Positions 7,060-59,362 of a stretch of DNA of 64,000 nt are shown in pieces. Below the pieces are notes generated by a model. The model did no database searches. It saw nothing but the letters and a program-made list of their open reading frames with translations, and was not told the origin of the DNA. Position numbers and translations under genes: made by a program. The stretch spans positions 1,921 to 65,920 of the forward strand of contig JAPOUT010000109.1 in the NCBI GenBank assembly GCA_026708545.1, read 5' to 3'. Every line of letters starts with the position of its first letter. Position 1 is the stretch's first letter. The DNA is from Hyphomicrobiales bacterium. Lineage in GTDB: Bacteria; Pseudomonadota; Alphaproteobacteria; JAPOUT01.

Positions 7060-8277
7060 GTGGTCAAACATAAAGTTGCATGGCACGTGAGACACGGTTT
7101 TAAACCGCTCATTAATGTTTCGGGTACGATGACCACTCTTGGCGCATCAATTGCTTCGCCCGAAGTTGTTGCTGCAACGGCTGAAGCGATGGAGCATTTT
7201 GTCGTGATACACCAAGCGCAAGCAAGGGCGAGCACGGCTATCGTGCAGGCAACCGGAGCGGAAGCCGGGTGCCTTACGGCTTCGGCAAGTGCAGGGGTTA
7301 CGCTATCAGTTGCAGCGTGCATGACAGGCCTTGATCCTGCACGGGTTCAAGCGTTACCTATCGATCCGGGACCACGAAGTGAAGTTATAGTGCAGGCTGG
7401 GCACCTCTGTGGCTACGGGGCTCCCATCGAGCAGGCCGTGGCCTTAACTGGAGCTCGTGTCAAACCGGTGGGACAATCGACGGTTTGCTCTGACTACCAG
7501 ATAGAGGGGGCCATTGGTGAAAAAACTGCCGCGGGTCTCTACGTGGTATCGCATCACGTCGTACACTATGGACAGTGTCCGCTCGCCCGCTTTGTGGAGT
7601 TGTGCCATGCTGCGGACGTGCCGGTGATTGTGGATGCGGCATCGGAATACGATCTGCGCGGCTTTTTGCAGGCTGGTGCAGACCTCGTAATCTACTCCGC
7701 ACACAAATTCTTAGGCGGACCAACCGCGGGTATCATTGCCGGACAGCGGGACTTGGTCAGAGCAGCTTATCTGCAGAACATTGGCATTGGCCGTGGTATG
7801 AAAGTCGGCAAGGAGAGTATTTTGGGCACGATAGCGGCGCTCGAAGCATGGGGAAAACGTGACCATGCCGCTGTGCGGGCACAAGAAACACAGACGCTGG
7901 AGCTATGGATGGAAACACTTGCTGGTCTAAGCGGTGTGACTGCACGACGGGTACCAGATCCCACAGGCAATCCGCTTGAGCGTCTTCAGGTCGAAATTGA
8001 TTCCAATGTGCTCGGCGTTGAGGCGGCAACGGTGGCTCGCATTCTGTCCGAACGCAGTCCCTCGATAATAGTACGCGACCTTGAGGCCGAACTGGGTTAT
8101 TTTCAACTTGACCCTTGCAATCTGAAAGATAACCAGGCGCAAGAGGTTGCAACTGCTCTGCAGGAAGTGTTGAAAAATCCATTAAATCTGACTAGTCACC
8201 CCGAAGATACCCATCTGGCGGCGCGCAATGGTACTGTTGCAGCATATATGCGCTGGGGTGCGACGAAAACGGAATAG
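7060..8277 (+). CDS. SelA-like / DgaE-family PLP-dependent enzyme (putative ammonia-lyase)
   Basis: 405 aa; 'SAHKFLGGPTAGIIAG' PLP-lysine motif characteristic of SelA-like fold-type I enzymes (DgaE family). Confidence 0.7.
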   Translation: MVKHKVAWHVRHGFKPLINVSGTMTTLGASIASPEVVAATAEAMEHFVVIHQAQARASTAIVQATGAEAGCLTASASAGVTLSVAACMTGLDPARVQALPIDPGPRSEVIVQAGHLCGYGAPIEQAVALTGARVKPVGQSTVCSDYQIEGAIGEKTAAGLYVVSHHVVHYGQCPLARFVELCHAADVPVIVDAASEYDLRGFLQAGADLVIYSAHKFLGGPTAGIIAGQRDLVRAAYLQNIGIGRGMKVGKESILGTIAALEAWGKRDHAAVRAQETQTLELWMETLAGLSGVTARRVPDPTGNPLERLQVEIDSNVLGVEAATVARILSERSPSIIVRDLEAELGYFQLDPCNLKDNQAQEVATALQEVLKNPLNLTSHPEDTHLAARNGTVAAYMRWGATKTE

Positions 8278-8547
8278 AATTAGCAAAACAAACTCGTCAG
8301 GTTCATTGAAAGATATGTGGAAGCATTTTAATTTATTACGACACCAAGATCTAATAAGAACCACCACAAAGATTCCTACTTTGTCAAAACAGGAGATGTC
8401 AAACAGTTAGACACCTTTCTGCGGCAATACTCAAAGCCAAGTCGCTAGAAATCCCACGCCGCACTTGCTACACTGCGAAACAATGAAATCAGCTGGCACA
8501 TTCCGCCGGATGGATATGTATGCCACAAACATCTCAACGGAGTTCGC

Positions 8548-10095
8548 ATGAAACTTGATATGAACCCGCAATTTAAAGAGGCCGTCAGATTGATGGAGAA
8601 AACCGATCAGACCCTCTTTATCACGGGTAAAGCCGGAACGGGAAAATCAACGCTTCTGGATTATTTCTGTAACAAGACCAAGAAAAACCCTGTTGTACTG
8701 GCAACAACAGGGGTAGGCGCGCTGAACGTCAAAGGGCAGACCATTCACAACTTTTTTAATTTCTACATTGATGTCACGGTCAAAAAAATCCGCGACAAAG
8801 ATACAAGACCGCGTGACCCAAAAATGTATAAGAAGTTAAAAGTCATCATTATTGATGAAGTTTCCATGCTGCGTGCCGACCTGCTGGATTGCGTTGATGT
8901 TTTCTTGAGAATGTACGGACCGGATGCCAAGAAGGCCTTTGGCGGCGTTCAGATGGTTTTTGTTGGGGATTTATACCAACTGCCGCCGGTGGTCGGCAAA
9001 GAGGAGCGTAAGATTTTTCGCACGCTTTACAAAACGCCTTACTTCTTTAGTGCCAAGGCGCTGGAATCCGTACCGCTGGAGATGGTGGAACTTGAGACCG
9101 TTTACCGTCAGAAGGATAAGCAGTTTGTTGGCCTGTTGAATAAAATCCGAAACAACTCCGTTGAACCGGAAGATGTAGAGGAACTGAATCAACGATATTT
9201 GCCGGATGCAGAAAATCCGCAAGAAGAATTTGCCATCAACCTGACGACAACCAATGCCAAGGCGGATGAAATCAATGAAAGCCACCTGAACGAGCTTGAC
9301 GGAGAACTTCATAGCAGTGAGGCCCTGATACGTGGTGATTTTGGCAAGGAGTGTTATCCAACGGCAACCAATCTGCAATTCAAGGTCGGCTCCCAAATTA
9401 TGCTGCTGAATAATGACCAGAAGAAACGTTGGGTAAACGGCAGTGTCGGCATTATCGAAGCGGTCGTGTGCGATAGAGACGACGAAGAGTATGTGTGCAT
9501 TCGACTGCGCGATAGAGACAAGCAGGTATATGTCTCGCCGTTCACGTGGGAGGTTTTTAAATTTTCCGCCAAAAAAGGCGTGATTGTTTCCGAGCCTGCG
9601 GGGAGCTTTACGCAATATCCGTTCCGGCTGGCATGGGCTGTTACCATCCACAAAAGCCAGGGCAAAACATTCGACAGCGTGGTGATTGATATTGGGCGAG
9701 GTACTTTTGTTAGCGGTCAAACCTATGTCGCGCTTAGCCGTTGCACTTCTTTTGAGGGTATTCAGTTGAGAGTCCCTATCAAAAAGCAACATATCCGGGC
9801 CGACTACCGCATCTATAAATTTCTGACGTCGTATGCTTACAAAAAAGCGGCTGAAACGCTTTCTTTCGATGACAAATTGGCGATGATTGAAAAAGCCATC
9901 GATGGAAAGCGAAAACTGGAAATGACCTATCTCAAGGCCAATGACACAAAATCCAAGCGGGTGGTTATGCCGCTGACAGTGGGCGGGGAAGTTTATGAGG
10001 GATATGATTTCCCCGGGATGCTCGCTTATTGCACCAAACGGAAAGAAGAACGCATGTTCAATGTTGAACGTATCCTTGAATTGCGAGAGGTATGA
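8548..10095 (+). CDS. Pif1/RecD-family ATP-dependent DNA helicase with C-terminal WYL domain
   Basis: Walker A GKAGTGKST, DExx-like IIIDEVSM, Pif1 motifs (VGDLYQLPPV, TIHKSQG); C-terminal ~85 aa matches WYL pattern (..MTYLK..SKRVVMPL...LAYC..R.FNVERI); gene lies in ~45% GC islet. Confidence 0.8.
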   Translation: MKLDMNPQFKEAVRLMEKTDQTLFITGKAGTGKSTLLDYFCNKTKKNPVVLATTGVGALNVKGQTIHNFFNFYIDVTVKKIRDKDTRPRDPKMYKKLKVIIIDEVSMLRADLLDCVDVFLRMYGPDAKKAFGGVQMVFVGDLYQLPPVVGKEERKIFRTLYKTPYFFSAKALESVPLEMVELETVYRQKDKQFVGLLNKIRNNSVEPEDVEELNQRYLPDAENPQEEFAINLTTTNAKADEINESHLNELDGELHSSEALIRGDFGKECYPTATNLQFKVGSQIMLLNNDQKKRWVNGSVGIIEAVVCDRDDEEYVCIRLRDRDKQVYVSPFTWEVFKFSAKKGVIVSEPAGSFTQYPFRLAWAVTIHKSQGKTFDSVVIDIGRGTFVSGQTYVALSRCTSFEGIQLRVPIKKQHIRADYRIYKFLTSYAYKKAAETLSFDDKLAMIEKAIDGKRKLEMTYLKANDTKSKRVVMPLTVGGEVYEGYDFPGMLAYCTKRKEERMFNVERILELREV

Positions 10096-10241
10096 CGGAT
10101 TTTCTTCATTTTCCGGAGGGAATTTGACCGCATTGCAGGCATCGGCGGCATGGTGCGGCTGATAATCAAAAGTGCTATACATCTACGGGTGTTCTGCGCT
10201 ATGTAGCGGCAGGGATGATGCAGGAAAAAGAAAAGGTTGCA

Positions 10242-11615
10242 ATGAGAAACACGGCAAAGCCCGAAGATGTAAAGCGGCTGGAGGCTTTTTTGCAGCAACA
10301 TCCCGAGGTCGCCCATGTTGATGCGGTTTTCTTTGATATCAACGGTGTGGCCAGGGGCAAGCGGGTGCCTCGTGAACATGCCGGCAAATTATATGCGGGC
10401 GGCTTGACCTTGCCGCGCTCCTTGTTTGTGCTGGATGTTCTCGGAGATGTAAGCAACGGCTTGGGCGTCGGTTTGAGGGATGGCGATCCGGACGGCATTG
10501 GCGTTCCGTTGCAGGGAGACGCGCTTCTTACGCCTTGGACAAGACAGCCGTGCGCGCAATTGTTGATGGACATGGTCGAACCGGACGGCAGTGCTGTTTG
10601 GTTTAATCCGCGTTACCAGTTGGGATTGGTCGTGGAGAAGTTTGCGTCGCTGGGATTGGTTCCGGTTTGCGCGGTGGAGCTGGAATTCTACCTGATCGAC
10701 CCGAAGCGGCGAGGCGAGGGGGGCGAGCCTCTGGCGCCGGTGTCGCCGCTTACGGAAGAGCGCGAACGTCATGCCCGTGTGTATGATTTGGAAGATTTGG
10801 AGTCGTATGGCGTTTTCTTCGAACGGTTGGATAAAATTGCATCGGCATTGTGCCTGCCGCTGAGTGCATCGAGCACGGAGTTTGCCCCGGGACAATTTGA
10901 AGTTAATTTGACGCACGGGAAGGATCCGCTGCTGGCGGGGGATCATGCCTGTTTGTTGCGCCAGGCGGTCGTTCAGACGGCGCGTTTGTGCGGGATGGAA
11001 GCAACTTTCTTGTCGAAGCCTTTTGCCAAAGAGACGGGCAACGGCATGCACATCCACTTGAGCATCCTGGATAACAACGGCAAAAACATTTTCCAATCGA
11101 AAGATGCGTATGGTACGTTTGCACTGCGCGAGGCAGTTCGCGGAATGCAAAAACTGATGGCGGAGTCGTTGGCCGTATTTGCGCCGCATATTAATGCGTA
11201 TCGCCGCCTCGGATCCGGAGGTTTTGCACCGTTCGTGCGCGACTGGTCATACAACAATCGATTAACGGCATTGCGCATTCCCGCGGGTAAGGAAGAAAGC
11301 AAACGCATCGAGCATCGCATGGCCGGAGCCGATGCGAATCCCTATTTGGTGTTGGCGTGCGTGCTGGCGGGGGCGTTGGAGGGTTTGGCGGACGGCATTG
11401 AGGCGGAATCTCCTCTCGAGGCAGGCACGCCGCATGCGCAGACATCGGATTTGCCGCCGAACCTGCCTGCGGCACTCGAGGTTTTCGAGAACGGCACGCG
11501 TTTGCGTGAGTATCTCCAACCGGAATATTTGGAATTGTATGCTTCCGTTAAACGCGGCGAATATGAACGCTTCATGGGAGAGGCTTTTGAGCGGGAGTTT
11601 TCCTGGTATCTGTAA
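10242..11615 (+). CDS. glutamine synthetase family protein (gamma-glutamyl-amine ligase type)
   Basis: GS catalytic-domain motifs (NGMHIHLS, ALRIPAG..R.E.R); start placed at MRNTAKP. Confidence 0.8.
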   Translation: MRNTAKPEDVKRLEAFLQQHPEVAHVDAVFFDINGVARGKRVPREHAGKLYAGGLTLPRSLFVLDVLGDVSNGLGVGLRDGDPDGIGVPLQGDALLTPWTRQPCAQLLMDMVEPDGSAVWFNPRYQLGLVVEKFASLGLVPVCAVELEFYLIDPKRRGEGGEPLAPVSPLTEERERHARVYDLEDLESYGVFFERLDKIASALCLPLSASSTEFAPGQFEVNLTHGKDPLLAGDHACLLRQAVVQTARLCGMEATFLSKPFAKETGNGMHIHLSILDNNGKNIFQSKDAYGTFALREAVRGMQKLMAESLAVFAPHINAYRRLGSGGFAPFVRDWSYNNRLTALRIPAGKEESKRIEHRMAGADANPYLVLACVLAGALEGLADGIEAESPLEAGTPHAQTSDLPPNLPAALEVFENGTRLREYLQPEYLELYASVKRGEYERFMGEAFEREFSWYL

Positions 11616-11618
11616 GCC

Positions 11619-12596
11619 CTACACGCCGTAGTATTCCCGATACCACTCCACAAAACGGGGGATTCCCTGCGCGATGGATGTCTTCGGTTGAAAGTTGAGG
11701 TCGCGCACGCTTTCCGAAATGTCCGCATAAGTTCGGGGCGCATCCCCGGGCTGAAGGGGAGCGAGGCGCTTGTCGGCGCCTTTGCCGAGCGCGCGCTCGA
11801 GTGTCGTAACAAGTGCGCGCAGCGATTCCATTTTGTGGTTGCCAAGATTGTAGACGCCGAGCTCCCCGTGCGGAGGCGCCGTTTGTGTCGCGGCGAGAAC
11901 GCCATCAACAATGTCATCGATGTAAGTGAAGTCCCGTTCCATATCACCGTAATTGAAGAGGGTGATGGGTTTATCTTCAAGAATGGATTTGGTGAATTGA
12001 AACAACGCCATGTCGGGGCGTCCCCATGGTCCGTATACGGTGAAGAATCGCAGGGCGGTTACCGGAATGCTGAAGAGATGGACGTAGGCCCGCGCGATGA
12101 TTTCGCCGGAGTGCTTGGATGCGGCATAGAGGGAGAGGGGTTTCTCGAGCGGATCCTTGACGCTGAAAGGAAGTCTGTCGTTGCCGCCGTATACGGAGGA
12201 CGACGATGCAAACACGAAATGCCTGAGTGTGTTGTTTTGCCGGATGCGCCTGGCGAGTTCGCAGATGACGACCTGTCCCTGCAGGTTGGAGCGTGCGTAG
12301 GAGAAGGGGTCGTCGAGGGAATGACGCACGCCGGCTTGTGCCGCCATGTGAATGATGGTGTGGATGTTGTGTTCTCCGGCTGCGAGTTCGTCAACGACGG
12401 TCTCGTCGGCGATGTCGCGTTTGAGGAAGGAGAAATTCTCATACGGCCGGAGAAGTTCAAGCCGTGCGTTTTTGAGTTCGGGGTCGTAGTATGCGTTGAG
12501 GTTGTCGATGCCGGTGACGCGCTCTCCGCGCTCGAGTAAAGCCTTTGAGATGTGGAAACCGATGAATCCGGCGGCGCCTGTTACGAGGATGGTCAT
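11619..12596 (-). CDS. NAD-dependent epimerase/dehydratase (UDP-glucuronate 4-epimerase-like)
   Basis: N-terminal TGAAGFIG Rossmann motif, YxxxK (YAASK) catalytic motif, GalE-family length. Confidence 0.8.
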   Translation of the reverse strand: MTILVTGAAGFIGFHISKALLERGERVTGIDNLNAYYDPELKNARLELLRPYENFSFLKRDIADETVVDELAAGEHNIHTIIHMAAQAGVRHSLDDPFSYARSNLQGQVVICELARRIRQNNTLRHFVFASSSSVYGGNDRLPFSVKDPLEKPLSLYAASKHSGEIIARAYVHLFSIPVTALRFFTVYGPWGRPDMALFQFTKSILEDKPITLFNYGDMERDFTYIDDIVDGVLAATQTAPPHGELGVYNLGNHKMESLRALVTTLERALGKGADKRLAPLQPGDAPRTYADISESVRDLNFQPKTSIAQGIPRFVEWYREYYGV

Positions 12597-12692
12597 TTCC
12601 CGCGAATGGTAAAACGCCGCGATATTTTTTGCAAAGATGTCGGTGTCGGGCTAGGATGGCGCGGAGGCGGGGAGATTGAAAAGGATGGAAAA

Positions 12693-15176
12693 ATGAAGAA
12701 ACTGCCGCCGTTATCCGTTGAGGAACTGCGCCCGAGCGCGAAGGTGGAAGACTTTTCCTTTACCAGCACGGACGAGTTGGAGCCTGTCGTCAATTTGATA
12801 GGGCAGGAGCGTGCCGTTCGCGCGATTGGATTCGGATCGCGTATCGAGCGGGAAGGCTTCAACATGTTTTTGTCGGGCCCGCAAGGCGCGGGGCGGCATT
12901 ATGCGGTGAGTTCTTTGCTGCGCGGGAAGGCGGCGCAGGAATCGCCGCCGGATGACTGGGTCTATGTGAATAATTTTGACGAACCGCACAAGCCCGTCGC
13001 ACTGCGGATGCCCGCGGGAACGGCGGTTCCGTTTCAAAACGCGATGGGTTCGCTGATGTCGGATTTGGTCGCGGTGTTTCCCGCGCTGCTTGAGGCGGAG
13101 GAATATCGTGCGCGTCGAGGCGAAATCGAAGAAGAGGCCGCCCGGCAGCAGGAAGCCGCGTTCGAGGATTTGAAAGAGCGCGCCGCGCGGGAGAACATCA
13201 CGATACTGCGCACGCCGATGGGATTCATGCTGACGCCCACGCGTGACGGGAAGGTTCTCAAGCCCGAAGATTTCGAAAAGTTGGAAGCCGAAGAGAAGAA
13301 AGCAATAGAATCGAAGATAAAGTCGTTGCAGGAGGACCTGGAGCGCGTGCTGGAGAAATTGCCGGAAATAGAAAAACACCGCCGTAACGGATTGCAAACT
13401 CTTCATGGCAATATAGCGGAAGCGGCCGTGGACAATCTGATGTCGCCGCTTTTGGAAAAGTTCGGGGAGATTGCGCCTGTTGTGCGCCATTTGGAGCGTG
13501 TGAAGGCGGATTTGATTGCGAACGCCGATGCGTTCTTTAAGCCGGAGGAGCAGGCTTCGAAAGGTAGCGCGCCCGCGGTATCCGTATCTGCCGTCGGCGC
13601 GGGAAGCGACCTCGGCTTTCGTCGCTATGGCGTGAATGTGATGGTGTGCGCGCGCGGCATTGACTGCGACGGGCACGACGGGGACGCATCGGGTGCGCCG
13701 CTGGTTGTGGAAGAATTGCCGTCTTTGGGCAATTTGGTCGGAAGAATAGAGCAGATAGCGCACATGGGCTCGCTGATAACGGACTTCATGCTGATAAAGC
13801 CCGGAGCGCTGCACCGGGCGAACGGAGGCTACCTTGTCGTTGACGCACACCGCGTGCTTGGCGAACCGCTGGCCTGGGAGGCGTTGAAGCGTTGTTTGGC
13901 GGGCAGACACATCAAGATAACCTCGCTGTCCGAACGTTACGGCATAGCCTCGACGGTGATGCTGGAGCCCGATCCGATACCGTTGCGTGTGAAGGTCGTG
14001 CTGGTCGGGGACAGGGCGCTTTATTATTTGTTGATGCGGCATGATCCGGATTTTCCCGAACTGTTCAAGGTCCAGGCGGATTTTGACGAGGAGATATCGC
14101 GCACGAAGGAGAATAACGCGCTGTATGCGCGCCTGATTGCGACGACGGTGAAACGGGAGAAATTACTGCCTCTGGGCGCGGATGCGGTCGCGCGCACGAT
14201 TGACGAGGCGGCGCGCATGGCGGATGACAACGAGAAATTGCTTTTGCGCGTCGGAATGTTATCCGACTTGCTGAGCGAAGCGAATTATTTTGCGCTTGAA
14301 TCCGGGCGCGAAAGGATAACGGCGGCGGACGTCGAAGAGGCATGCCGGCAGCGTTTTGACAGGGCTTCACGGATACGCGAGCGCTCGCACGAGCGGATTT
14401 TGCGCAACACGATGCTGATAGCGACCACGGGCGGGGAGGTCGGACAAATCAACGGGCTTTCGGTGGCCACGATCGGAGGATTCCGTTTCGGGCAGCCGGC
14501 CCGCATCACGGCGCAGGTTCGGATGGGCGCGGGCAAGGTCGTGGATATCGAGCGCGAGGTTCATCTGGGCGGGCCGATACATTCGAAGGGCGTGTTGATA
14601 CTCTCGAGTTTCCTGGCGGCGCATTACGCCCTTGATGTGCCGATGTCCTTGTGGGCAAGCTTGGTGTTTGAGCAATCGTACGGGCTGCTTGACGGCGACA
14701 GCGCGTCCTCGGCGGAGTTGTATGCGTTGTTGTCGGCCTTGTCCCGGGCGCCGATTTCACAATCTTTGGCGGTGACCGGCTCGGTCAACCAGAAGGGCGA
14801 GGTGCAGGCGATCGGCGGCGTGAACGAGAAGATCGAAGGCTTTTTTGACATATGCAAAGAGAGGGGACTGACCGGCGGGCAGGGCGTTTTGATCCCCCAA
14901 TCGAATGTGAAAAATCTAATGCTACGTCCCGATGTCGTTAAGGCGGCGGAGGATGGAGATTTCCGCATTTACGGCGTCTCGCACATTCACGAGGGAATTA
15001 CGCTGCTGACCGGCTTGCCCGCAGGCGAGCGCGGCGAAGACGGCAACTTCCCCGAGGGCAGCGTGAACGCAATGGTGGAAGAGCGGTTGCGTGAGTTTGC
15101 GCATGCGCGGCGGCGTTTTAGTTCGGGCGCAAAAGAAAAAAACGGCGAGTCCGAAGCGGAAGGAGGAGGTAAATGA
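12693..15176 (+). CDS. Lon-like protease, LonC-type (AAA+ module with degenerate Walker A/B, S16 Ser-Lys protease domain)
   Basis: Start chosen at ATG 12693 (MKKLPPL) after GGAGG RBS; Walker A position reads GPQGAGRH (Lys->Arg), Walker B region VVDAH lacks Glu; C-terminal 'DGDSASSA' and 'NEKIEGF' match Lon catalytic Ser/Lys. Confidence 0.75.
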   Translation: MKKLPPLSVEELRPSAKVEDFSFTSTDELEPVVNLIGQERAVRAIGFGSRIEREGFNMFLSGPQGAGRHYAVSSLLRGKAAQESPPDDWVYVNNFDEPHKPVALRMPAGTAVPFQNAMGSLMSDLVAVFPALLEAEEYRARRGEIEEEAARQQEAAFEDLKERAARENITILRTPMGFMLTPTRDGKVLKPEDFEKLEAEEKKAIESKIKSLQEDLERVLEKLPEIEKHRRNGLQTLHGNIAEAAVDNLMSPLLEKFGEIAPVVRHLERVKADLIANADAFFKPEEQASKGSAPAVSVSAVGAGSDLGFRRYGVNVMVCARGIDCDGHDGDASGAPLVVEELPSLGNLVGRIEQIAHMGSLITDFMLIKPGALHRANGGYLVVDAHRVLGEPLAWEALKRCLAGRHIKITSLSERYGIASTVMLEPDPIPLRVKVVLVGDRALYYLLMRHDPDFPELFKVQADFDEEISRTKENNALYARLIATTVKREKLLPLGADAVARTIDEAARMADDNEKLLLRVGMLSDLLSEANYFALESGRERITAADVEEACRQRFDRASRIRERSHERILRNTMLIATTGGEVGQINGLSVATIGGFRFGQPARITAQVRMGAGKVVDIEREVHLGGPIHSKGVLILSSFLAAHYALDVPMSLWASLVFEQSYGLLDGDSASSAELYALLSALSRAPISQSLAVTGSVNQKGEVQAIGGVNEKIEGFFDICKERGLTGGQGVLIPQSNVKNLMLRPDVVKAAEDGDFRIYGVSHIHEGITLLTGLPAGERGEDGNFPEGSVNAMVEERLREFAHARRRFSSGAKEKNGESEAEGGGK

Positions 15177-16063
15177 CAATGCCGCGGCGTCCGTTGATTC
15201 CGAAGCGGATAGTCGTTGCGTTGCGTTCGCATTCGGAGGCGGATACAGCCCTGAACGCCGCGACCGTATTGGCGCAGGCGCTGCGGGCGGAGTTGTTCGG
15301 TTTGTTCGTGGAGGAGGAGTCCGTGCTGCAGTCGTCGGATTTGCCGTTTGCGCGGGCGGTCGGAATGCGGCGCGGCGCGCAGGTTTCGCGCGAGAACATG
15401 CTGGCGGCGTTCGAGCAGGATGCCCTGGCGTGCCGGAGGCTGTTGTCGTCAAGCGCGGAGCGGGCGCGCGTATCGTGGCGCTTTGACCGGGTTCGAGGCG
15501 AAAGTTACGAAATATTCTTCGGCGAATCGAAAGAGCGGGACGCCGGGCGCGAAGACATATTGCTGTTGCAGGAGTCCTACGGCGGCGGAAGCGTGCACGG
15601 GATTATTGCGCGCGCGCGCGGAGCCGCGGAACGTTGCGGCGGAATGATATTGCTGGGCCCGTGGCGGCGGCGCCGGGTCGGACCGGTGGTTGCAATTGTT
15701 GAGAACATCGGTTCCGAGGGCGGCATGGATGCGGGCGATGCGGATGAGCGCATTCTGGATTTGGCCGTGCGGATTGCCCGCGAGCAGGGGAGTCGCCTGC
15801 TGGTATTTGTGGTCGGGGAGACGCGCGCCGAGACCGACGAGGCGTTGCGGCAGGCGCAAGCGGGCCTGCCGACGGGAGAATCACTGGAGGGTTACGCGTT
15901 TCTGGGTGACGCCGTCGGCGAGGTTTGCCACGGCTTGGCAGTCAGCGCACCCTCGTTCGTGCTGCTGGATGTCGAAGGCGTGCTGTTTCGCGACGACGCC
16001 CGCGCCGAAAGGCTGCTTCGCAGCGCCCGTTCGCCGGTGGCGCTGCTGAAATCGCGCGATTAG
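15173..16063 (+). CDS. hypothetical protein, tandem universal-stress-protein-like (USP) domains
   Basis: ATGA overlap with Lon-like gene; two ~140-aa halves each with USP-like alternating beta-alpha pattern (RIVVAL.. / PVVAIV..); no recognisable ATP-binding G-x2-G-x9-G(S/T). Confidence 0.45.
   Translation: MTMPRRPLIPKRIVVALRSHSEADTALNAATVLAQALRAELFGLFVEEESVLQSSDLPFARAVGMRRGAQVSRENMLAAFEQDALACRRLLSSSAERARVSWRFDRVRGESYEIFFGESKERDAGREDILLLQESYGGGSVHGIIARARGAAERCGGMILLGPWRRRRVGPVVAIVENIGSEGGMDAGDADERILDLAVRIAREQGSRLLVFVVGETRAETDEALRQAQAGLPTGESLEGYAFLGDAVGEVCHGLAVSAPSFVLLDVEGVLFRDDARAERLLRSARSPVALLKSRD

Positions 16064-36048: not shown

Positions 36049-36049
<1 letters not shown>
35639..36049 (-). 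CDS. atpC: F0F1 ATP synthase subunit epsilon
   Basis: 136 aa; N-terminal beta-sandwich (FHFNLVCPE...) and C-terminal helical hairpin; immediately downstream of atpD. Confidence 0.9.
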
Positions 36050-37614
<1,565 letters not shown>

Positions 37615-48780: not shown

Positions 48781-48857
48781 CGGAGCGTAGCGCAGCCCGG
48801 TAGCGCACTTGTCTGGGGGACAAGGGGTCGTGGGTTCAAATCCCGCCGCTCCGACCA
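48781..48857 (+). tRNA. tRNA-Pro (anticodon GGG)
   Basis: Manually folded cloverleaf: acceptor CGGAGCG/CGCTCCG, D arm GCGC, anticodon loop CUGGGGG, T loop TTCAAAT, discriminator A, encoded CCA. Confidence 0.85.
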
Positions 48858-53604: not shown

Positions 53605-54087
53605 ATGGGCAAAAACCTACAACTCCCTGATGCCGTATTGTTTGCTTGCAATCAAAACTCCATCCGCTCGCCAATGGCGGAAGCTATTCTTAAACATATC
53701 TTGGGCGACAAAATCTATGTCGATTCATGCGGACTCGTTGCAAGCGAAATCGATCCTTTCGTTCTTGCTGTCATGGACGAAATCAACATTGATCTCTCCA
53801 AGCACAAAGCCAAAAGTTTCGATAACCTCGCAGACACATCCTTCAATCTCATCATCGCGCTCACACCGGAGTCACTCGAATGCGCAAACGAATTTACCCG
53901 TGCAATTTCCGTTGCGGTGGAGTATTGGCCAACCTCGAATCCATCCGACACCATAGGCAGCCGCGAACACAAACTTGAGGCCTACCGGCGCGTACGCGAC
54001 GACCTTATTAAGCAAATTCAAAAACGCTTTGAAATACATTCCAAAATATTGCCGGATTCTACAAAACATGTTAAACGAAAACCATGA
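53605..54087 (+). CDS. low molecular weight phosphotyrosine protein phosphatase / ArsC-like
   Basis: CX5R P-loop 'CNQNSIRSPMAE' near N-terminus. Confidence 0.75.
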   Translation: MGKNLQLPDAVLFACNQNSIRSPMAEAILKHILGDKIYVDSCGLVASEIDPFVLAVMDEINIDLSKHKAKSFDNLADTSFNLIIALTPESLECANEFTRAISVAVEYWPTSNPSDTIGSREHKLEAYRRVRDDLIKQIQKRFEIHSKILPDSTKHVKRKP

Positions 54088-55469
54088 ATAAAACGCGCTC
54101 CAACACAACCGCAACGCTTGCTGAATACGACAACCGGCACTATCTCCATCCGTGGGAGGCGATGGAATCCTACGGGAATGCCAACCGGCTCATCGCTACA
54201 AAAGCCGAAGGCGTCTATATCTACGATCAACACGGGCGCAAACTCATTGACGGGCCGGGAGGTATGTGGTGCGTGCAAATCGGTCATGGACGCAAGGAAA
54301 TCGCAGACGCTATCACCGAACAAATCGATACGCTCTCCTATTGCTCGCCGTGGTTCATGACGTCCGCACCCGGCGCAACCCTCGCGCAGACACTTGCAAA
54401 TATGGCACCCGGCGACCTGAACAATGTTTTCTTCACAACCGGAGGTTCAACCGCCGTCGACACCGCAATCCGAACCATGCACTTCTACAACAACCGGCTC
54501 GGACGACCTAATAAAAAAATCATGATTGCACGAGAGAAGGGCTACCACGGTTCGACTTTCTTGGCCGCAAGCGTCTCGGGAAAAGAACGTGACAAAAGCT
54601 GGTTCGACATCAACAGCCCTCTTGTACGCATCCTTCCCAATGTTAATCCGAATTTGCGCCCCGAAGGCATGAGCCCCGAGGAATGGTGCGATGTGAAAGT
54701 CAAAGATCTCGAGGACACCATCCTCGAAGCCGGCGAGGAGAATGTTGGTGGTTTCATTGCCGAGCCGGTGCTTGCTTCCGGCGGAGTCATCATTCCCCCG
54801 CCGGGTTATCACCAAAAAACGCTTGAAGTCTGTCGCAAACATGATGTGTTATATATTTCCGATGAGGTGGTTTGCGCTTTTGGGAGACTGGGACATTGGT
54901 TTTCATCGCAGGAGGTTTTCGGTATTACACCCGATATCATTACTTGCGCCAAGGGACTCACTTCGGGCTATCAGCCTCTCGGAGCGTGCATTATCTCCGA
55001 CCGCATCATCAACACCATCAGCGGCGACGGACAAAAGGACGTTCTTTTCTCCAACGGTTACACCTATTCCGGTCACCCCATTCCCTGCGCCGTTGCACTT
55101 AAAAACATCGAAATCATGCGGCGCGAGAATATCCTCGAACATGTGCGCGATATTTCTCCCTACTTCCTTGAACGCCTCGAATCCCTCAAGCGCTACCCCG
55201 TTGTCGGAGACGCCAGGGCTATCGGACTCGTCGGGTGCATCGAGGGGCGTATCCGGTCGCAAAAAGACTCCGAGCCCGAACGCCTCCAACTCGACAGAGA
55301 CATCGGGGAGCAAATTGACCAAGCCTGTGAGGAAAAAGGGCTCATTGTGCGTCCCCTGATCAACATGTGTGTATTCTCGCCCCCGCTGGTCATCACTCGC
55401 GACGAGCTCTCCCGTATGATGGATATCCTCGAGAGCGCCATCGCGGAACTATCGGAGAAATCCGCATAA
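54084..55469 (+). CDS. class III (omega) aminotransferase, PLP-dependent
   Basis: 461 aa; motifs HGYHGST, DEVVCAFGRLG, TCAKGLTSG (Schiff-base Lys). Confidence 0.85.
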   Translation: MNKTRSNTTATLAEYDNRHYLHPWEAMESYGNANRLIATKAEGVYIYDQHGRKLIDGPGGMWCVQIGHGRKEIADAITEQIDTLSYCSPWFMTSAPGATLAQTLANMAPGDLNNVFFTTGGSTAVDTAIRTMHFYNNRLGRPNKKIMIAREKGYHGSTFLAASVSGKERDKSWFDINSPLVRILPNVNPNLRPEGMSPEEWCDVKVKDLEDTILEAGEENVGGFIAEPVLASGGVIIPPPGYHQKTLEVCRKHDVLYISDEVVCAFGRLGHWFSSQEVFGITPDIITCAKGLTSGYQPLGACIISDRIINTISGDGQKDVLFSNGYTYSGHPIPCAVALKNIEIMRRENILEHVRDISPYFLERLESLKRYPVVGDARAIGLVGCIEGRIRSQKDSEPERLQLDRDIGEQIDQACEEKGLIVRPLINMCVFSPPLVITRDELSRMMDILESAIAELSEKSA

Positions 55470-55764
55470 TTGCCAAAATAACCGTCCATGTGCTAGACTT
55501 CGTGTCTGTAGCATTTCTGTATAAGGAGTAGCCCCATGAACGAAATTTTCCAAACTCTTGCCATGAGATGTGCCATAGCTTGTCGGCAGGGCATGTCGTT
55601 TAGGCCGGTGTCGCCTGTTGCGGTGGTATGACTTATTGCCATATGGAACTCGTCACCGTCAGCGAACCCATTATTGTGACCATGTGTAACACGGACAGAC
55701 CCATTCTCTCTGCCGAAGAACAGGCGAGCATCGGATGTTCACCATCGACATCGAGGGCACTTTC

Positions 55765-56553
55765 ATGACGCTTGCACGCATTAATATCCTTGTGTCTGCA
55801 ATGTTGTTACTCTCGGCTTGTTCGTTGGGTTCGCCGCAGGATACCCTCCCGCCGCTTTCAGGCAACTATAAAATCGGCAAACCATATCAGATTTCGGGAC
55901 AGTGGTATCATCCGCACCATAATCCCGAGTATGATGAAGTTGGGATTGCGTCGTGGTATGGCCCTGGCTTTCACGGCAACACGACTGCCAACGGCGAGAT
56001 TTACGACCAAAACGCGCTCACGGCTGCGCATCCGACTTTGCCGATGCCCGTGCTTGTGCGCGTGACCAATCTCGAGAACGGACGTTCGTTGGTCTTGCGT
56101 GTGAATGATCGTGGTCCTTTTGTAGGCGGGCGCATTATAGATGTATCGCGTCGTGCGGCGGAGCGGTTGGGATTTTGGCGTCAAGGTACTGCTTGGGTTC
56201 GAGTGAAATATCTCTCCGGTGGTCCGGATAGCCAGCCCGCGACGCAAAAAACACAAGCAACAGAATCCCCTGATCCTTCACAGAGGCAGTTATTTGTACA
56301 AGCGGATTCGCTACGGGCGTATGAAAATGCTGCGACCTTGCGTGATACGTTGCACGGCTTTGGAAATGCTCGCATTGATGAGATTGTTACGAATGATGAG
56401 TCTGTCTATCGAATTCGTTTAGGCCCTTGGGAAGACTGGGATTCGGCGTATGATGTTCTGCAGATGGTCCTCTCTCGGGGCCATTCCCGTGCGCAAATCA
56501 TCTCGGTTGAAGAGCGCATCCTTGGGGGTGCAGGCTTGTTTACATCACAGTAA
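55765..56553 (+). CDS. rlpA: septal ring lytic transglycosylase RlpA family lipoprotein with SPOR-like C-terminus
   Basis: Start trimmed to MTLARINILVSAMLLLSACS (lipobox); DPBB motifs (GIASWYGPGFHGNTTANGE, VRVTNLENGRS..VRVNDRGP). Confidence 0.8.
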   Translation: MTLARINILVSAMLLLSACSLGSPQDTLPPLSGNYKIGKPYQISGQWYHPHHNPEYDEVGIASWYGPGFHGNTTANGEIYDQNALTAAHPTLPMPVLVRVTNLENGRSLVLRVNDRGPFVGGRIIDVSRRAAERLGFWRQGTAWVRVKYLSGGPDSQPATQKTQATESPDPSQRQLFVQADSLRAYENAATLRDTLHGFGNARIDEIVTNDESVYRIRLGPWEDWDSAYDVLQMVLSRGHSRAQIISVEERILGGAGLFTSQ

Positions 56554-56571
56554 CGCAAGGAGAAAAGGGGT

Positions 56572-57729
56572 ATGAACCCGAAATTGTATTTTTTTGCCGG
56601 TATAATTTTTGGACTTGCGTTTTTACCGTTTCGTCCTGCTGCGGCACAGCAGGAAACTCTTGCCTCTTATGCGGTTTTAATGGATGCGGGAAGTGGAACG
56701 GTCTTATTTGAGAAAAACGCTGATGTCCCGATGATGCCGGCGAGCATGAGCAAATTGATGTCGATGTTGCTACTGTTTGACAAGATTGAGGCGGGAGAGA
56801 TTTCGCTGGAAGACGAGTTGCTGGTGAGTGTGGATGCTTGGGAGCGGGGAGGGGCGAAATCTGGTTCATCGACGATGTTTGCGGACCCGAATTCCCTCAT
56901 TCGTTTGGAGGATTTGGTTCGTGGCGTCATCGTGCAGTCGGCAAATGATGCATCCATTGCCATCGCTGAGGGTATTGCCGGTTCGGAAGAAGCTTTTGCC
57001 ACGCAAATGAATCATCGTGCGGAGGAGTTAGGACTAGAGCACTCGAACTTTGTCAATGCCAGCGGCTGGCCCGATCCGAAGCATTATGCTTCGGCGGTGG
57101 ACCTTGCCCGGATAGCGCGATACATTTTATTCGAGCAGCCTGAGCATTATGCTTACTATGCGGAGAGGGATTTTGAATGGAACGGCATCAGACAATCCAA
57201 TCGCAATCCGCTACTGGGTGCCGAAACGGGAGTGGATGGATTAAAAACCGGACACACGGAGGAGTCCGGATATGGATTGGTTGTTTCTGCCAAGCGAGGG
57301 GGACGTCGGCTTATTCTTGTTGTGAATGGGCTCGGATCGAAACAGGAGCGAGCGCAAGAGGCGCGACGATTGTTGCATTGGGGATTCTCTGCATTTCGTT
57401 CTTATCGCTTGCTTAGTGCGGGAGAATCGGTTGCCAGGGTCCCGGTGTGGCACGGAGAGCATCGTCATGCGAATCTAATTACGCGCGAACCGGTCGAAAT
57501 TGTCTGGACTCCGGAACAACGACGCCAACTTGAAGCGAAGTTAATTTATGAGAATCCCTTGCATGCTCCCGTTAGTGCCGACACACCTGTTGCACGTCTG
57601 GTATTTAGTGCGCCGCAAGCGCAGAGTGTTGAGGTTCCGTTGTGGAGCAAGCATGCGATAAAACGTTCAGGAATGCTTTCGCGGGCGCTTGCGACTCTTG
57701 AGGCGATGGTTTACCCACCTGTTCCTTGA
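56572..57729 (+). CDS. D-alanyl-D-alanine carboxypeptidase (PBP5/6 family)
   Basis: Signal peptide; SxxK (PASMSKLM), SGN (QSAND), KTG (LKTGHT) motifs. Confidence 0.85.
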   Translation: MNPKLYFFAGIIFGLAFLPFRPAAAQQETLASYAVLMDAGSGTVLFEKNADVPMMPASMSKLMSMLLLFDKIEAGEISLEDELLVSVDAWERGGAKSGSSTMFADPNSLIRLEDLVRGVIVQSANDASIAIAEGIAGSEEAFATQMNHRAEELGLEHSNFVNASGWPDPKHYASAVDLARIARYILFEQPEHYAYYAERDFEWNGIRQSNRNPLLGAETGVDGLKTGHTEESGYGLVVSAKRGGRRLILVVNGLGSKQERAQEARRLLHWGFSAFRSYRLLSAGESVARVPVWHGEHRHANLITREPVEIVWTPEQRRQLEAKLIYENPLHAPVSADTPVARLVFSAPQAQSVEVPLWSKHAIKRSGMLSRALATLEAMVYPPVP

Positions 57730-58379
57730 TGGAAGGGGTGCGCGGATATTTTCTTTCCTTCGAAGGAGGGGAGGGCACGGGCAAGTCGACTCAGGTTAAT
57801 TTATTGCGGCACCGGCTTGAAGAGTTGGATATTGCGAGCATGACGACACGCGAACCGGGCGGCACGGAGATTGGCAGGCATGTGCGGGAGATTCTCCTTC
57901 ACACAAAGGATGAATCGATGCGCCTTTCTCCGATGAGTGAAGCTTTGCTTTTCGGACTCGACCGCTTCGAGCATCTGCAAAAAGTCATTCGACCTGCTTT
58001 AGAGAAGGGGAAATGGGTGTTGTGCGACCGTTTTGCCGATTCGACACTTGCCTACCAGGGATATGTTTTGGGTGGTGATGTTAGGGATATAGAAGCGTTG
58101 AATGCTCTGGTAGTTGGAAAAACGCAACCTGACCTGACTTTCGTGTTGGATATTGCAGCAGAGAAATCTCTGGCGCGAGCACATGAACGTCATGAAGAAT
58201 CCTCTTATTATGACGACAAGATGATCGAATTTCATGAAAAGATTCGTGCGGCGTTCTTAGCAATTGCCAAAGATAATCCCGAACGCTGCATTGTTATCGA
58301 TACTGACGCACCTGTTGAGAAAGTCGCTATGCGCATCGAAACAACCTGCCGGGAGCGTTTAGGTGTAGAATTCTCATGA
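57726..58379 (+). CDS. tmk: dTMP kinase
   Basis: P-loop FEGGEGTGKST, DRF motif. Confidence 0.9.
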   Translation: MMEGVRGYFLSFEGGEGTGKSTQVNLLRHRLEELDIASMTTREPGGTEIGRHVREILLHTKDESMRLSPMSEALLFGLDRFEHLQKVIRPALEKGKWVLCDRFADSTLAYQGYVLGGDVRDIEALNALVVGKTQPDLTFVLDIAAEKSLARAHERHEESSYYDDKMIEFHEKIRAAFLAIAKDNPERCIVIDTDAPVEKVAMRIETTCRERLGVEFS

Positions 58380-59362
58380 GCAAAGTACACGGGCATGACT
58401 CGGCAATTGCGCTTTGGAATTCGGCCTTGCAGGGAGGGCGAATGCATCACGCTTGGCTGCTGTGCGGACGACGAGGAATCGGTAAAGCGGGTCTGGCGCA
58501 CGGTTTCGCAAAGCAATTGCTCAACATTCCCGGAGATGATGATACTATCGTCGCGCATCCTGACCTGCTCGTATTGGAGCGCGAATGGGATGACAAGCGC
58601 AAGCGTCGAAAATCTTTTATATCGGTGGAGAATGTTCGACGCGTTTCAGATTTCTTTGCCAAGAGTGCCTCACATAATGGTTGGCGCGCTTGTATTATCG
58701 ATAGCGCCGACGAGATGAACCTCAATGCCGCCAATGCTTTGCTGAAGATTTTAGAGGAACCGCCACGACAAAGTCTATTTCTGTTAGTATCGCATCAACC
58801 GGAACGCCTTTTACCAACGTTGCTTTCGCGTTGCAGGCGCTTGCGGCTTAACCCTTTGAGTGATGATGATATGCTTGCGCTGTTGCAAGAAAGCCACCCC
58901 GATCTTGCTGCCGAGCAGCATGATAGATTGCTGTTGTTGTCAGAGGGAAGTCCCGGACGCGCTTTTGCGCTGATGGAAGGTGGTGGGCTAGAACTTTATG
59001 CGGATATGATATCATTGTTTGAAGGTCTGCCGGATCGTTTCGATATGTCGGCGGCGCATGTATTTGCCGACCGTTTGAGTGCGCTTGACCAGGAAAAACT
59101 CTATCGTGAGTTCATGGAATTGTTGCGAGGTTTTTTAGAACGGTTTATTCGCGCCTTGGTTGGGGGAGGGGCCCTGCCAGCGGGAGAGTCCCGCTTGTTG
59201 GAGCACCTTGCTTCGGACTGTATGATTGATTTATGGATTGGTGTGTGGGAAAAGATTGATAACTGGCTGGATGGCGTTGAGCGTTTGCAAATGAATCGCA
59301 AACAGACATTGTTGCTTGCCTTCGCACAGATAGAGGCGGCCGCACAGAAAAGAGAGATTTGA
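58376..59362 (+). CDS. holB: DNA polymerase III subunit delta'
   Basis: AAA+ clamp-loader fold, degenerate P-loop (GRRGIGKAG), ALLKILEEPP box. Confidence 0.8.
   Translation: MSKVHGHDSAIALWNSALQGGRMHHAWLLCGRRGIGKAGLAHGFAKQLLNIPGDDDTIVAHPDLLVLEREWDDKRKRRKSFISVENVRRVSDFFAKSASHNGWRACIIDSADEMNLNAANALLKILEEPPRQSLFLLVSHQPERLLPTLLSRCRRLRLNPLSDDDMLALLQESHPDLAAEQHDRLLLLSEGSPGRAFALMEGGGLELYADMISLFEGLPDRFDMSAAHVFADRLSALDQEKLYREFMELLRGFLERFIRALVGGGALPAGESRLLEHLASDCMIDLWIGVWEKIDNWLDGVERLQMNRKQTLLLAFAQIEAAAQKREI

Follow-up and report, generated by a model that had tools for sequence, protein, structure and literature searches.

Layout of the locus

The 64-kb stretch of DNA analyzed here (the window) reaches its minimum in GC content at positions 8278-10214 (1937 nt), where the GC content is 46.4% compared to a mean of 54.9% over the window (z = -2.9 against non-overlapping windows). 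Only 0.28% of sliding windows of the same length are equally low, and every one of these overlaps 8278-10214. A first-pass annotation had put this stretch at about 45% GC, which the sliding-window analysis bears out, and its flanks at 55-65%, which is slightly too high, the adjoining 2 kb on the two sides having 54.0% and 56.1%. It had also placed a single gene here with metabolic genes on either side, and this is what we find. One open reading frame on the forward strand (8548..10095, stop codon included), recognized from the ORF itself, Pfam matches, and full-length homology as the gene for a predicted Pif1-WYL helicase of 515 aa, lies between the gene of a SelA/DgaE-related PLP enzyme (7060-8277) upstream and a glutamine-synthetase-family (GlnA-like) gene (10215-11615) downstream. 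AT-rich non-coding DNA had been described on both sides of the helicase gene, and that is true of the upstream intergenic spacer (8278..8547, forward strand, 270 nt, 42% GC; assigned from sequence, GC, blastn boundaries, and alignment) but not of the downstream spacer 5' of the GlnA-like gene (10096..10214, forward strand, 119 nt; GC and blastn boundaries), which has 52% GC.

A ribosome-binding site, GGAG (8539-8542), is located five bases 5' of the ATG. Only the 3' part of the upstream spacer is kept in the syntenic relatives, from 8445 with relative L001 and from 8384 with relative L002 (blastn). A sigma-70 consensus scan gave no promoter-like match upstream of the helicase gene, a scan of the downstream spacer (10096-10214) gave no intrinsic-terminator-like site, and reading the upstream spacer by eye did not reveal the alphaproteobacterial SOS/LexA box GTTC-N7-GTTC. 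Two further open reading frames were considered and rejected as genes. One of 403 aa, antisense to the helicase gene (8971-10182), is open only in the window and is reduced to 66-203 aa in 13 homologous genes, and because it is unconserved across homologs we regard it as a shadow ORF. The other, a small ORF at 8228-8410, matches no family and falls outside the part of the upstream spacer that is conserved.

Domains of the predicted helicase

The gene product is a predicted Pif1-family SF1B helicase. The Pfam PIF1 profile (PF05970) matches aa 15-206 with 96.5 bits (cut-off 25.9), and the Pif1/RecD motifs reported in the first-pass annotation could be located and are all intact: Walker A, GKAGTGKST (aa 27-35); Walker B, IIIDEVSM (100-107); FGGVQMVFVGDLYQLPPV (131-148); VYRQKD (185-190); TIHKSQGKTF (366-375); and YVALSRC (393-399). 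The motif III region of Pif1-type helicases has the consensus FGG[IV]Q...GD..QLPPV, which is quoted here as general background and not as a scored match to this protein. From the motifs and from alignments to solved Pif1 cores, the SF1B core is assigned to aa 1-415 (8548..9792, forward strand), and its homology extends to yeast and human PIF1. The alignments to solved Pif1 structures span the entire core with its 2B/SH3 insertion. The separate Pfam profiles for this insertion remained below threshold, Pif1_2B_dom with 17.8 bits (cut-off 23.9) and SH3_13 with 22 bits (cut-off 41).

The core is followed by a helical linker (aa 416-456; 9793..9915, forward strand), assigned from the AlphaFold model, the alignment to DdPif1, and the published description of the latter (Rety et al., 2023, PMC9964779). 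In the model it consists of two helices, at approximately aa 425-437 and 440-453, and its residue R421 aligns without gaps to K414 of DdPif1, a modelled ssDNA contact. The linker leads to a WYL β-barrel at aa 457-514 (9916..10089, forward strand), for which Pfam, the AlphaFold model, Foldseek, and residue mapping were used. The Pfam WYL profile (PF13280) matches aa 443-513 over profile positions 2-69 of 70 with 35.1 bits (cut-off 21.8), and the WYL model of PADLOC also matches (E = 6.6e-8). A search of the PDB with the C-terminus as a single sequence reached no WYL proteins outside Pif1, and a profile search of PDB sequences found BrxR and PafC first outside Pif1, weakly (E = 0.2-0.3). After these null or weak sequence searches, it was the fold search that settled the WYL identity of the C-terminus. 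With the AlphaFold model of aa 424-515 (pLDDT 86.5), the best 32 Foldseek matches in the PDB are all WYL proteins, comprising 31 named as such, including BrxR, PafBC, CapW, and DriD bound to ssDNA, together with 6OAW, deposited as a CRISPR Cas-related protein, which we take to be WYL1 (TM 0.59-0.68). For the regulators BrxR, CapW, PafBC, and DriD, the rmsd is 2.1-3.4 Å over 72-78 residues (E = 5e-5 to 8e-3), and WYL matches that include CapW and ssDNA-bound DriD are at TM 0.6-0.68 and rmsd 2.1-2.6 Å.

Four of the five arginines of the DdPif1 WYL domain that are modelled as ssDNA contacts are kept, with R471, R498, R502, and R508 aligning gaplessly to R464, R491, R495, and R501 of DdPif1. The fifth, R498 of DdPif1, is replaced by Asn505, and K413 of DdPif1 by Tyr420. 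By motif position, Arg471, Cys495, and Arg502 would correspond to R470, C494, and R501 of TePif1, a correspondence deduced via DdPif1 and the residue list in 10.1101/163188. The C-terminal WYL domain of the first-pass annotation is therefore upheld by the Pfam match, the predicted fold, and end-to-end homology to published proteins, and its basic residues stand at positions of the ssDNA-channel residues of DdPif1.

Composition of the helicase gene

The low GC content had been taken as a sign that the gene is compositionally foreign. Its codons do not support this. GC2 of the helicase gene (0.333) is the lowest of the 54 ORFs, while GC3 (0.537) ranks 13 of 54 (z = -0.9) and is within the host range. 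Approximately 30% of the GC deficit is contributed by GC1, 44% by GC2, and 26% by GC3, so that about three quarters of it resides in codon positions 1 and 2 and mirrors amino acid composition. Moreover, GC2 across the helicase family is 0.31-0.36 and is constant irrespective of host GC, with family genes at 0.39-0.50 GC and their hosts at 0.37-0.59. We conclude that the low GC is mainly due to a protein rich in Lys, Glu, Phe, Asn, and Ile, whose composition is constant across hosts, and the case shows that a GC dip may stem from protein composition rather than from foreign origin. The GC3 of the helicase gene equals that of the upstream genes (0.50-0.57) but is 0.07-0.14 lower than that of the downstream block (0.63-0.76) in all three syntenic carriers, which leaves room for an older foreign origin.

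Residence at the site

In two relatives, L001 and L002, the helicase gene lies directly 5' of the same GlnA-like/epimerase/LonC block as in the window. Nucleotide identity to the window is 87.4% (L001) and 83.9% (L002) for the helicase gene and 88.8% and 81.6% for the flanks, and a third comparison gives 83.4% for the helicase against 81.2% for the flanking block. Divergence of the helicase therefore parallels that of its flanks, which argues against a recent import. A third relative, L006, has no helicase gene at this site and its homology with the window starts only at 10241; it was the sole close relative in a genome scan with the GlnA-like protein, the other 79 loci being set aside as paralogs or distant homologs (38-46% identity). 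Four-point distances give the unrooted four-taxon tree ((window,L001),(L002,L006)), on which loss is the simplest account of the gene missing from L006. Since this close relative does without it at the site, the gene is dispensable or replaceable. Placing the root on the L006 branch would convert the loss to a gain.

These data bear on the proposal of the first-pass annotation that the gene is a recently acquired single-gene islet whose low GC is that of unameliorated DNA from a lower GC donor. It is indeed the lowest GC stretch of the window, it is missing from the same site in L006, its GC3 is below that of the downstream block, and the family, as described below, changes location from genome to genome and shows hints of deep transfer. 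Against this, the gene occupies the same site in two relatives and has co-diverged with flanks that are 81-89% identical, its GC3 is that of its host and upstream neighbors, and most of the deficit is in codon positions 1 and 2. The boundaries of an insertion are also lacking. There are no integrase, IS, or mobility genes near the helicase gene, its neighbors being metabolic, and no tRNA gene within 38 kb, the sole tRNA gene of the window being at 48781. Flanking repeats were considered as insertion scars and rejected, as only imperfect matches of 12-22 nt were found, which is at chance level. The recent acquisition is largely refuted by synteny with co-divergence and we consider it very improbable. 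What would speak most directly against it, carriage at the same position with host-like composition, is largely what the relatives show (L001 and L002), with the qualifications that L006 lacks the gene and that GC3 is below the downstream block. The helicase gene was probably at this site before the lineages of the window, L001, and L002 split, as a long-resident chromosomal gene.

Genomic contexts of homologs

In more distant homologs (64-80% identity), the gene has a different location in every genome sampled. Among 13 independent contexts, 6, the window included, have housekeeping or metabolic surroundings, for example, 3' of the atp operon or between cydAB and pheST, and the other 7 (a raw tally with no background control) are defense or mobile-element islands that contain restriction-modification genes, Lamassu, IS elements, or conjugative-element remnants. 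No partner gene is conserved across the 13. With a different place in each genome and about half of the copies in islands, the family looks mobile over long timescales. When the same genome pairs are compared, the helicases are 68% identical where AtpD is 66%, and 64% where HflX is 45.5%, and a helicase as similar as AtpD and more so than HflX hints at transfer at deeper levels. An old acquisition combined with long-term mobility of the family is thus plausible, given also the absence in L006 and a GC3 lower than that of the downstream block.

One origin that we considered is that the gene once served the replication or processing of an ICE or prophage and was kept after the element decayed. 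The L004 homolog (78% identity) is 7 kb from a tRNA-Ser gene, together with an integrase fragment, TraH, TrbC, a TraF-like peptidase, Toprim, and an rve transposase; the L086 and L087 copies adjoin transposases; a 3-kb stretch of small ORFs with 37% GC lies directly 5' of the helicase gene in L002 (neither of two tested ORFs has a family match); and phages commonly encode Pif1/Dda-like cores. Yet searches of 50,697 phage records, of 72,556 plasmids, and of IMG/VR yielded no full-length Pif1-WYL protein and no viral contig, the matches listed being WYL-less helicase cores of at most 46% identity. Homology among non-syntenic copies is limited to the ORF and at most ~50 nt upstream, so no common element backbone is visible, and that the gene has stayed intact and conserved points to selection in the host. 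A domesticated remnant of this kind appears improbable.

A second possibility is a stand-alone defense gene, against phages as the first-pass annotation suggested or against plasmids. In this reading the WYL domain would sense invader ssDNA and anchor a helicase that dismantles replication or recombination intermediates. Homologs of 67-80% identity do lie beside defense genes. The L106 homolog is 72 nt downstream, on the same strand, of a complete type I restriction-modification system with an AlpA-like HTH gene ahead of it, that of L091 adjoins a type I HsdR fragment and a Fic gene, that of L088 has a complete Lamassu LmuABC with PDC-S01 at a distance of 3.5 kb, and that of L089 adjoins a type IIG restriction-modification fragment, PDC-S45, and T5orf172. 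PDC-S01-like AAA_14/DUF4143 genes are near the helicase genes of L086, L087, and L088. In addition, the nearest solved WYL folds are those of defense regulators, the WYL regulators CapW, BrxR, and DriD offer a parallel for ssDNA sensing, and close relatives differ in whether they carry the gene. With 7 of the 13 contexts in islands, a conflict-related role would fit better than a core role.

Direct support for defense was not obtained, however. PADLOC-DB 2.0 gave only partial matches, to PDC-S68, RecD-like, PDC-M16A, and WYL models, and none spans the protein. PDC-S68, PDC-M16A, and the RecD-like helicases of type IV CRISPR systems have the SF1B P-loop core in common with it (E = 1e-12 to 1e-21, aa 15-250 or 15-329), but partial cover of profiles of 690-1273 positions, with 1273 for PDC-S68, and a differing architecture indicate that the helicase is not a member of these families. 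It has no effector domain, it shares with the family the lack of a conserved partner, the island tally has no background to be set against, and five other contexts are, like that of the window, purely metabolic or housekeeping. In the window there are no defense genes beside the helicase gene, and we found no paper in the literature that ties Pif1-WYL to defense. A defense role for the window copy is in our view possible but unlikely. A broader form of this idea, that Pif1-WYL is a mobile single-gene conflict module in which the WYL tail detects invader ssDNA and the motor strips or unwinds intermediates, with the window copy as the islet left by an island, is in our opinion somewhat more doubtful again. 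If true, it would account for a gene that moves among restriction-modification, Lamassu, and IS islands of marine Alphaproteobacteria and that only some congeners carry.

Proposed function

Based on the domain identity, intact motifs, WYL fold, channel arginines, synteny, and co-divergence presented above, we put forward a reading to which we assign a probability of roughly 60%, namely that the gene encodes an ssDNA-anchored 5'-3' Pif1-WYL accessory helicase with a job in replication or repair that is long resident and not a recent import. We propose that the gene is transcribed singly from the conserved 100-160 nt upstream, without a partner gene. The ATP-driven SF1B motor would load onto single-stranded DNA and move in the 5' to 3' direction, while the WYL barrel would grip that strand in its 5' portion, raising ssDNA affinity and linking ATP hydrolysis to productive unwinding of DNA that is forked, 5'-tailed, or structured. 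The polarity, the binding of ssDNA by the WYL domain, and the substrates are what we infer from homologs, and its physiological role we can only infer; most likely it would be that of an accessory replication and repair helicase that frees forks or breaks with 5' tails from DNA structures or bound proteins. What bacterial Pif1 helicases do physiologically has gone without a test in the literature (PMC3113762, PMC9964779). A solitary gene that changes location and is found in about half of its contexts in restriction-modification, Lamassu, or IS islands provides a testable lead on this long-open question of their role in vivo.

Comparison with characterized helicases and WYL proteins

Pif1-WYL fusions had been noted as known in bacteria, and the published examples bear this out. 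The helicase here is co-linear with SsPif1 of Sulfurihydrogenibium sp. (8BNS; aa 3-515 to 5-516, ~50% identity, E = 2e-167), and its alignment with DdPif1 of Deferribacter desulfuricans (8BNV/8BNX; E = 3e-147) likewise spans the whole protein. Both were described by Rety et al. (2023, PMC9964779) as Pif1-WYL helicases, and they have the core, helical linker, and C-terminal WYL domain in common with the helicase here. Such end-to-end alignment means that this kind of protein has already been described. By sequence it belongs to the Pif1-WYL subfamily of TePif1, SsPif1, and DdPif1, in which it is an ordinary member. The homologs listed (at least 120) are mostly 515-537 aa in length and most have a precomputed PF13280 match. 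A C-terminal profile retrieved 424 cluster representatives (50% identity clusters) at E ≤ 0.001, in whose full-length members the WYL domain is usually C-terminal, with a few longer proteins extending beyond it. The hosts of SsPif1 and DdPif1 are thermophiles, whereas the host here is a mesophilic marine alphaproteobacterium (Parvibaculaceae/'Hyphomicrobiales bacterium' MAGs). It has been suggested in print that the WYL tail is an adaptation of thermophiles, with which the abundance of close full-length Pif1-WYL homologs in Alphaproteobacteria-labelled MAGs, several from ocean metagenomes, does not fit.

Other known relatives have one or the other part of the protein. BaPif1 of Bacteroides (5FHD/5FTB) aligns with the core at aa 8-429 (E = 1e-80) and ToPif1 of Thermus oshimai (6S3E) at aa 22-414 (E = 5e-69), but neither continues past the core into a WYL domain. 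BrxR, CapW, PafBC, and DriD have the Sm-like WYL barrel in common with the helicase, and several of them bind ssDNA via the same channel, but they are dimeric regulators with wHTH domains, whereas the helicase here lacks an HTH and has its WYL domain joined to a motor enzyme. A functional guide is TePif1 of Thermotoga elfii, the biochemically characterized Pif1-WYL helicase (Andis et al., 2018, 10.1101/163188) whose domain order, as described, matches that of the helicase here. TePif1 is monomeric and its WYL domain binds ssDNA, and when that domain is deleted or mutated, high-affinity ssDNA binding is abolished, ATPase activity rises 3.5-5.7 fold, and unwinding falls 10-200 fold (10.1101/163188). 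By homology to TePif1, the helicase here would be expected to have an ssDNA-stimulated ATPase and to unwind fork-like, 5'-tailed, and G4 substrates, with the WYL domain serving as an accessory ssDNA-binding module.

A single helicase gene in a low-GC stretch

The stretch at 8278-10214 has a GC content of 46.4%, against 54.9% over all 64 kb of the window and 54.0% and 56.1% in the adjoining 2-kb flanks. Relative to non-overlapping windows its z is -2.9, and the 0.28% of same-length sliding windows that are equally low all overlap it, so that the GC dip described in the first-pass annotation is borne out, as is the claim of one gene. The sole credible gene is that of the Pif1-WYL helicase at 8548-10095 (+), which encodes 515 aa and has GGAG 5 bases ahead of its ATG. 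An antisense ORF at 8971-10182 (-; 403 aa) is open in the window alone and interrupted in all 13 homologous genes examined, whose longest antisense runs without a stop are of 66-203 aa, and we therefore regard it as a chance shadow ORF. AT-rich non-coding DNA had been described on both sides, and this is true of the upstream spacer (270 nt, 42% GC) and not of the downstream one (119 nt, 52% GC). Annotation of the neighbours confirms that the helicase lies between metabolic genes, with an oligopeptide-type ABC ATPase, a YjgF-like protein and a SelA/DgaE-related PLP enzyme upstream and a glutamine-synthetase-family gene, an NAD-dependent epimerase and a LonC-like protease downstream. The epimerase gene (11619-12596, -) and the LonC-like ORF (12552-15176, +) are divergently oriented, and the GTG start listed for the latter overlaps the 5' end of the former by 45 nt; because relatives are called with shorter LonC-like products (827-856 aa), the true start is probably further downstream.

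Composition of the helicase gene

That the gene is compositionally foreign, as had been claimed, mostly does not hold. Compared by codon position with the other 53 window ORFs that reach 150 aa, the helicase has the second lowest total GC among the 54 (z = -2.2) and the lowest GC2 (0.333), while its GC3 of 0.537 ranks 13th (z = -0.9) and is level with that of the upstream genes (0.50-0.57). The GC deficit falls chiefly on the first two codon positions, the shares of positions 1, 2, and 3 being about 30%, 44%, and 26%. Across ten loci in hosts of 37-59% GC, helicase GC2 stays at 0.31-0.36 and total GC at 0.39-0.50, and therefore the dip mainly reflects a protein rich in Lys, Glu, Phe, Asn, and Ile. 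There is a residual signal, in that helicase GC3 is 0.07-0.14 under that of the conserved downstream block in the window and in two related loci (L001 and L002), and across hosts it follows flank GC3 loosely (r = 0.54) and is pulled toward ~0.5, a pattern that either past transfers or weak codon selection could account for. Composition is uneven within the window, GC3 being 0.76 in a conserved hypothetical gene (15173-16063) and 0.47-0.62 in the genes at ~53.6-62.5 kb (53605-62486), and the helicase is therefore not its sole low-GC3 region.

Residence of the helicase in close relatives

The window protein clusters at 90% identity with proteins from MAGs labelled "Hyphomicrobiales bacterium". 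The Tara Oceans contigs L001 and L002/L003 carry the helicase at 86% and 83% amino acid identity, directly 5' of a gene block shared with the window, comprising GlnA-like, epimerase, LonC, hypothetical, DUF3501, and CCG genes. Nucleotide identities of the helicase track those of this flanking block, at 87.4% and 88.8%, respectively, between the window and L001, 83.9% and 81.6% between the window and L002, and 83.4% and 81.2% between L001 and L002; at the protein level the helicase of this close group diverges slightly faster than the flanks. The closest genome located via the flanking GlnA-like gene, the Parvibaculaceae MAG chromosome L006 (OY734805.1), contains the whole block (87-90% amino acid identity; nucleotide identity 85.8% to the window and 83.9% to each of L001 and L002), but its homology to the window begins only at 10241 and there is no helicase in the 10 kb upstream of the block. 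Abutting the GlnA-like gene in place of the helicase (L006:2636-9861) are a TRAP transporter (DctQMP), a second GS-like gene, glutamate-synthase-like genes, and a GATase, a set that resembles a coherent cluster for amine/glutamate handling. In this group, synteny has a breakpoint where the GlnA-like gene starts.

The four-point condition on block distances gives the unrooted tree ((window,L001),(L002,L006)), and the simplest reading is that the group's common ancestor already had the helicase at this site and that L006 lost or replaced it. It is possible that the tree is rooted on the L006 branch, from which it would follow that the helicase was gained by the others rather than lost in L006. 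Whether by loss or by gain, the helicase is no recent arrival at this locus. The recent horizontal acquisition put forward in the first-pass annotation is not supported, and the comparison of position and composition in relatives largely refutes it, as L001 and L002 carry the gene at the same site, co-diverging with its flanks.

To the left of the helicase the loci differ, with a SelA/DgaE-like gene in the window, a non-homologous sequence in the 400 nt available in L001, and, directly upstream of the helicase in L002 (L002:1-2950), 3 kb at 37% GC (locus mean 47%) with small ORFs, two of which gave no Pfam match and one other only faint TPR hits. This low-GC stretch may be what is left of a larger variable island, with the helicase as its innermost gene. 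Shared sequence upstream of the helicase starts at 8445 (L001) or 8384 (L002), and no tRNA gene, repeat, or mobility gene was found at the helicase borders.

Genomic contexts and the question of defence

A protein homology search gave at least 8000 matches, the best 120 of which are mostly of 515-537 aa on a smooth gradient from 86% to 61% identity and, where named, come from MAGs labelled Alphaproteobacteria, several of the closest full-length ones from ocean metagenomes. Searches of phage, plasmid, and IMG/VR collections found no full-length relative and, among the matches listed, gave WYL-less cores of at most 46% identity. At 80% identity or below, synteny with the window is gone, and homology of the non-syntenic copies is confined to the ORF and at most ~50 nt upstream. 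AtpD of the window (36049-37542) and of the related locus L103 are 66% identical and the helicases 68%, while for L093 the values are 45.5% for HflX (62627-63958) and 64% for the helicase; these two rough rate comparisons hint that, at depth, the helicase was transferred laterally or is under unusually strong constraint.

With the window, L001, and L002 treated as a single context, we examined 13 independent contexts, of which seven are island-like. The helicase is accompanied by a tRNA-Ser followed by an integrase fragment, TraH, TrbC, a TraF-like peptidase, Toprim, and an rve transposase (L004), by AAA_14/DUF4143, a GH25 lysozyme, and a DDE transposase (L086), by a cluster of IS elements (L087), by a complete Lamassu LmuABC, PDC-S01, Uma2, and Fic (L088), by a type IIG R-M fragment, PDC-S45, T5orf172, and a ResIII helicase (L089), by a type I HsdR fragment, YgjP, and Fic (L091), or by an AlpA-like HTH gene and a complete type I R-M system ending 72 nt before it on the same strand (L106). 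The other six are housekeeping or metabolic, comprising the window group and positions after a sugar ABC transporter (L102), after the atp operon near parAB (L103), between cydAB and a P-type ATPase near pheST (L104), between rsmA/kdsB-like genes and tsaD (L105), and between chemotaxis genes and pgm/hflX (L093). No neighbour recurs across the 13 contexts, and the helicase is therefore solitary everywhere.

Some of the islands merit description. In two independent contigs (L106:1912-9614 and L107:699-5389), 80%-identical Pif1-WYL genes lie on the same strand as, and 72 nt past, a complete type I R-M system (AlpA-like HTH, HsdM, HsdS, and HsdR genes). In L088:854-6241, Lamassu LmuA, LmuC, and LmuB (PADLOC), a PDC-S01-like AAA_14/DUF4143 gene, and a Uma2 endonuclease lie at most 7 kb upstream of a 71%-identical Pif1-WYL, and AAA_14/DUF4143 genes are near the helicase in L086 and L087 too.

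The island association (7/13, a raw count without background control) is what speaks for Pif1-WYL being a defence gene, a minority hypothesis that we consider unlikely; the window locus itself has no defence context. PADLOC gave partial matches only, of the helicase core to the much longer candidates PDC-S68, PDC-M16A, and RecD-like and of the C-terminus to generic WYL models, NCBIfam gave no match above its cut-offs, and literature searches turned up no proposal that Pif1-WYL is a defence gene. What bacterial Pif1 helicases do in vivo is described as unknown (PMC3113762, PMC9964779), and we propose with moderate confidence that the window helicase is most likely an accessory replication/repair helicase. 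The gene may have been acquired long ago, the family may be mobile in the long run, and a conflict-related role is possible; the gene neighbourhoods of Pif1-WYL provide a testable lead on the in vivo role.

Comparison with characterized Pif1-WYL helicases

The claim of a Pif1 helicase with a C-terminal WYL domain is confirmed by profiles, predicted fold, and full-length matches. Pfam PIF1 matches aa 15-206 (96.5 bits, cut-off 25.9) and Pfam WYL aa 443-513 (35.1 bits, cut-off 21.8), and every motif from Walker A and Walker B to the later SF1B ones is intact. Residues 424-515 were modelled with AlphaFold from 25 homologous C-termini; the model has a mean pLDDT of 86.5 and shows two helices leading into a five-stranded barrel. 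Its top 32 Foldseek matches in the PDB are WYL proteins throughout (TM-scores 0.59-0.68; rmsd 2.1-2.6 Å in the best matches), namely BrxR, PafBC, CapW, DriD (ssDNA complexes included), and 6OAW, deposited as a CRISPR Cas-related protein, which we take to be WYL1. A C-terminal linker+WYL profile found 424 representatives of 50%-identity clusters (E ≤ 0.001), in which the module is usually C-terminal in full-length proteins and a few longer proteins extend past it. The longer cluster representatives P0139 (710 aa), P0150 (706 aa), P0239 (965 aa), and P0260 (700 aa) have it either at the extreme C-terminus of a 700-aa protein or with 200-450 residues beyond, and such proteins are unexplored architectures within the subfamily.

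End-to-end PDB matches are to 8BNS (aa 3-515 to 5-516, E 2e-167, ~50% identity) and 8BNV/8BNX (E 3e-147), all deposited as "AAA ATPase", followed by WYL-less Pif1 cores of Bacteroides, Thermus oshimai, yeast, and human. These entries are SsPif1 (Sulfurihydrogenibium; 8BNS) and DdPif1 (Deferribacter desulfuricans; 8BNV/8BNX), Pif1 helicases with a C-terminal WYL (PMC9964779). The window helicase is thus a mesophilic alphaproteobacterial member of a known, biochemically characterized kind, ~50% identical to the Aquificota protein SsPif1. The published idea that Pif1 may carry its WYL tail as an adaptation to thermophily (PMC9964779) has a counter-example in this protein and in its closest full-length homologues, which come from the MAGs labelled Alphaproteobacteria.

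In TePif1 of Thermotoga elfii, deletion of the WYL domain or mutation of four channel residues abolishes high-affinity ssDNA binding, raises ATPase activity 3.5-5.7 fold and lowers unwinding 10-200 fold, and the enzyme favours fork-like and 5'-tailed substrates and also unwinds G4 DNA (10.1101/163188). In the DdPif1 model, an 18-nt strand passes with its 3' part through the helicase channel, with the WYL domain gripping its 5' end (PMC9964779). The C-terminus of the window helicase aligns with that of DdPif1 without gaps (numbering DdPif1 + 7), and by motif position its Cys495 is placed at C494 of TePif1. Because of this co-linearity and the conserved residues, the mechanism of TePif1 and DdPif1 is the best-supported one by which the window helicase would act. 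Four modelled ssDNA contacts of DdPif1, R464, R491, R495, and R501, are kept as R471, R498, R502, and R508, whereas a fifth, R498, is replaced by Asn505.
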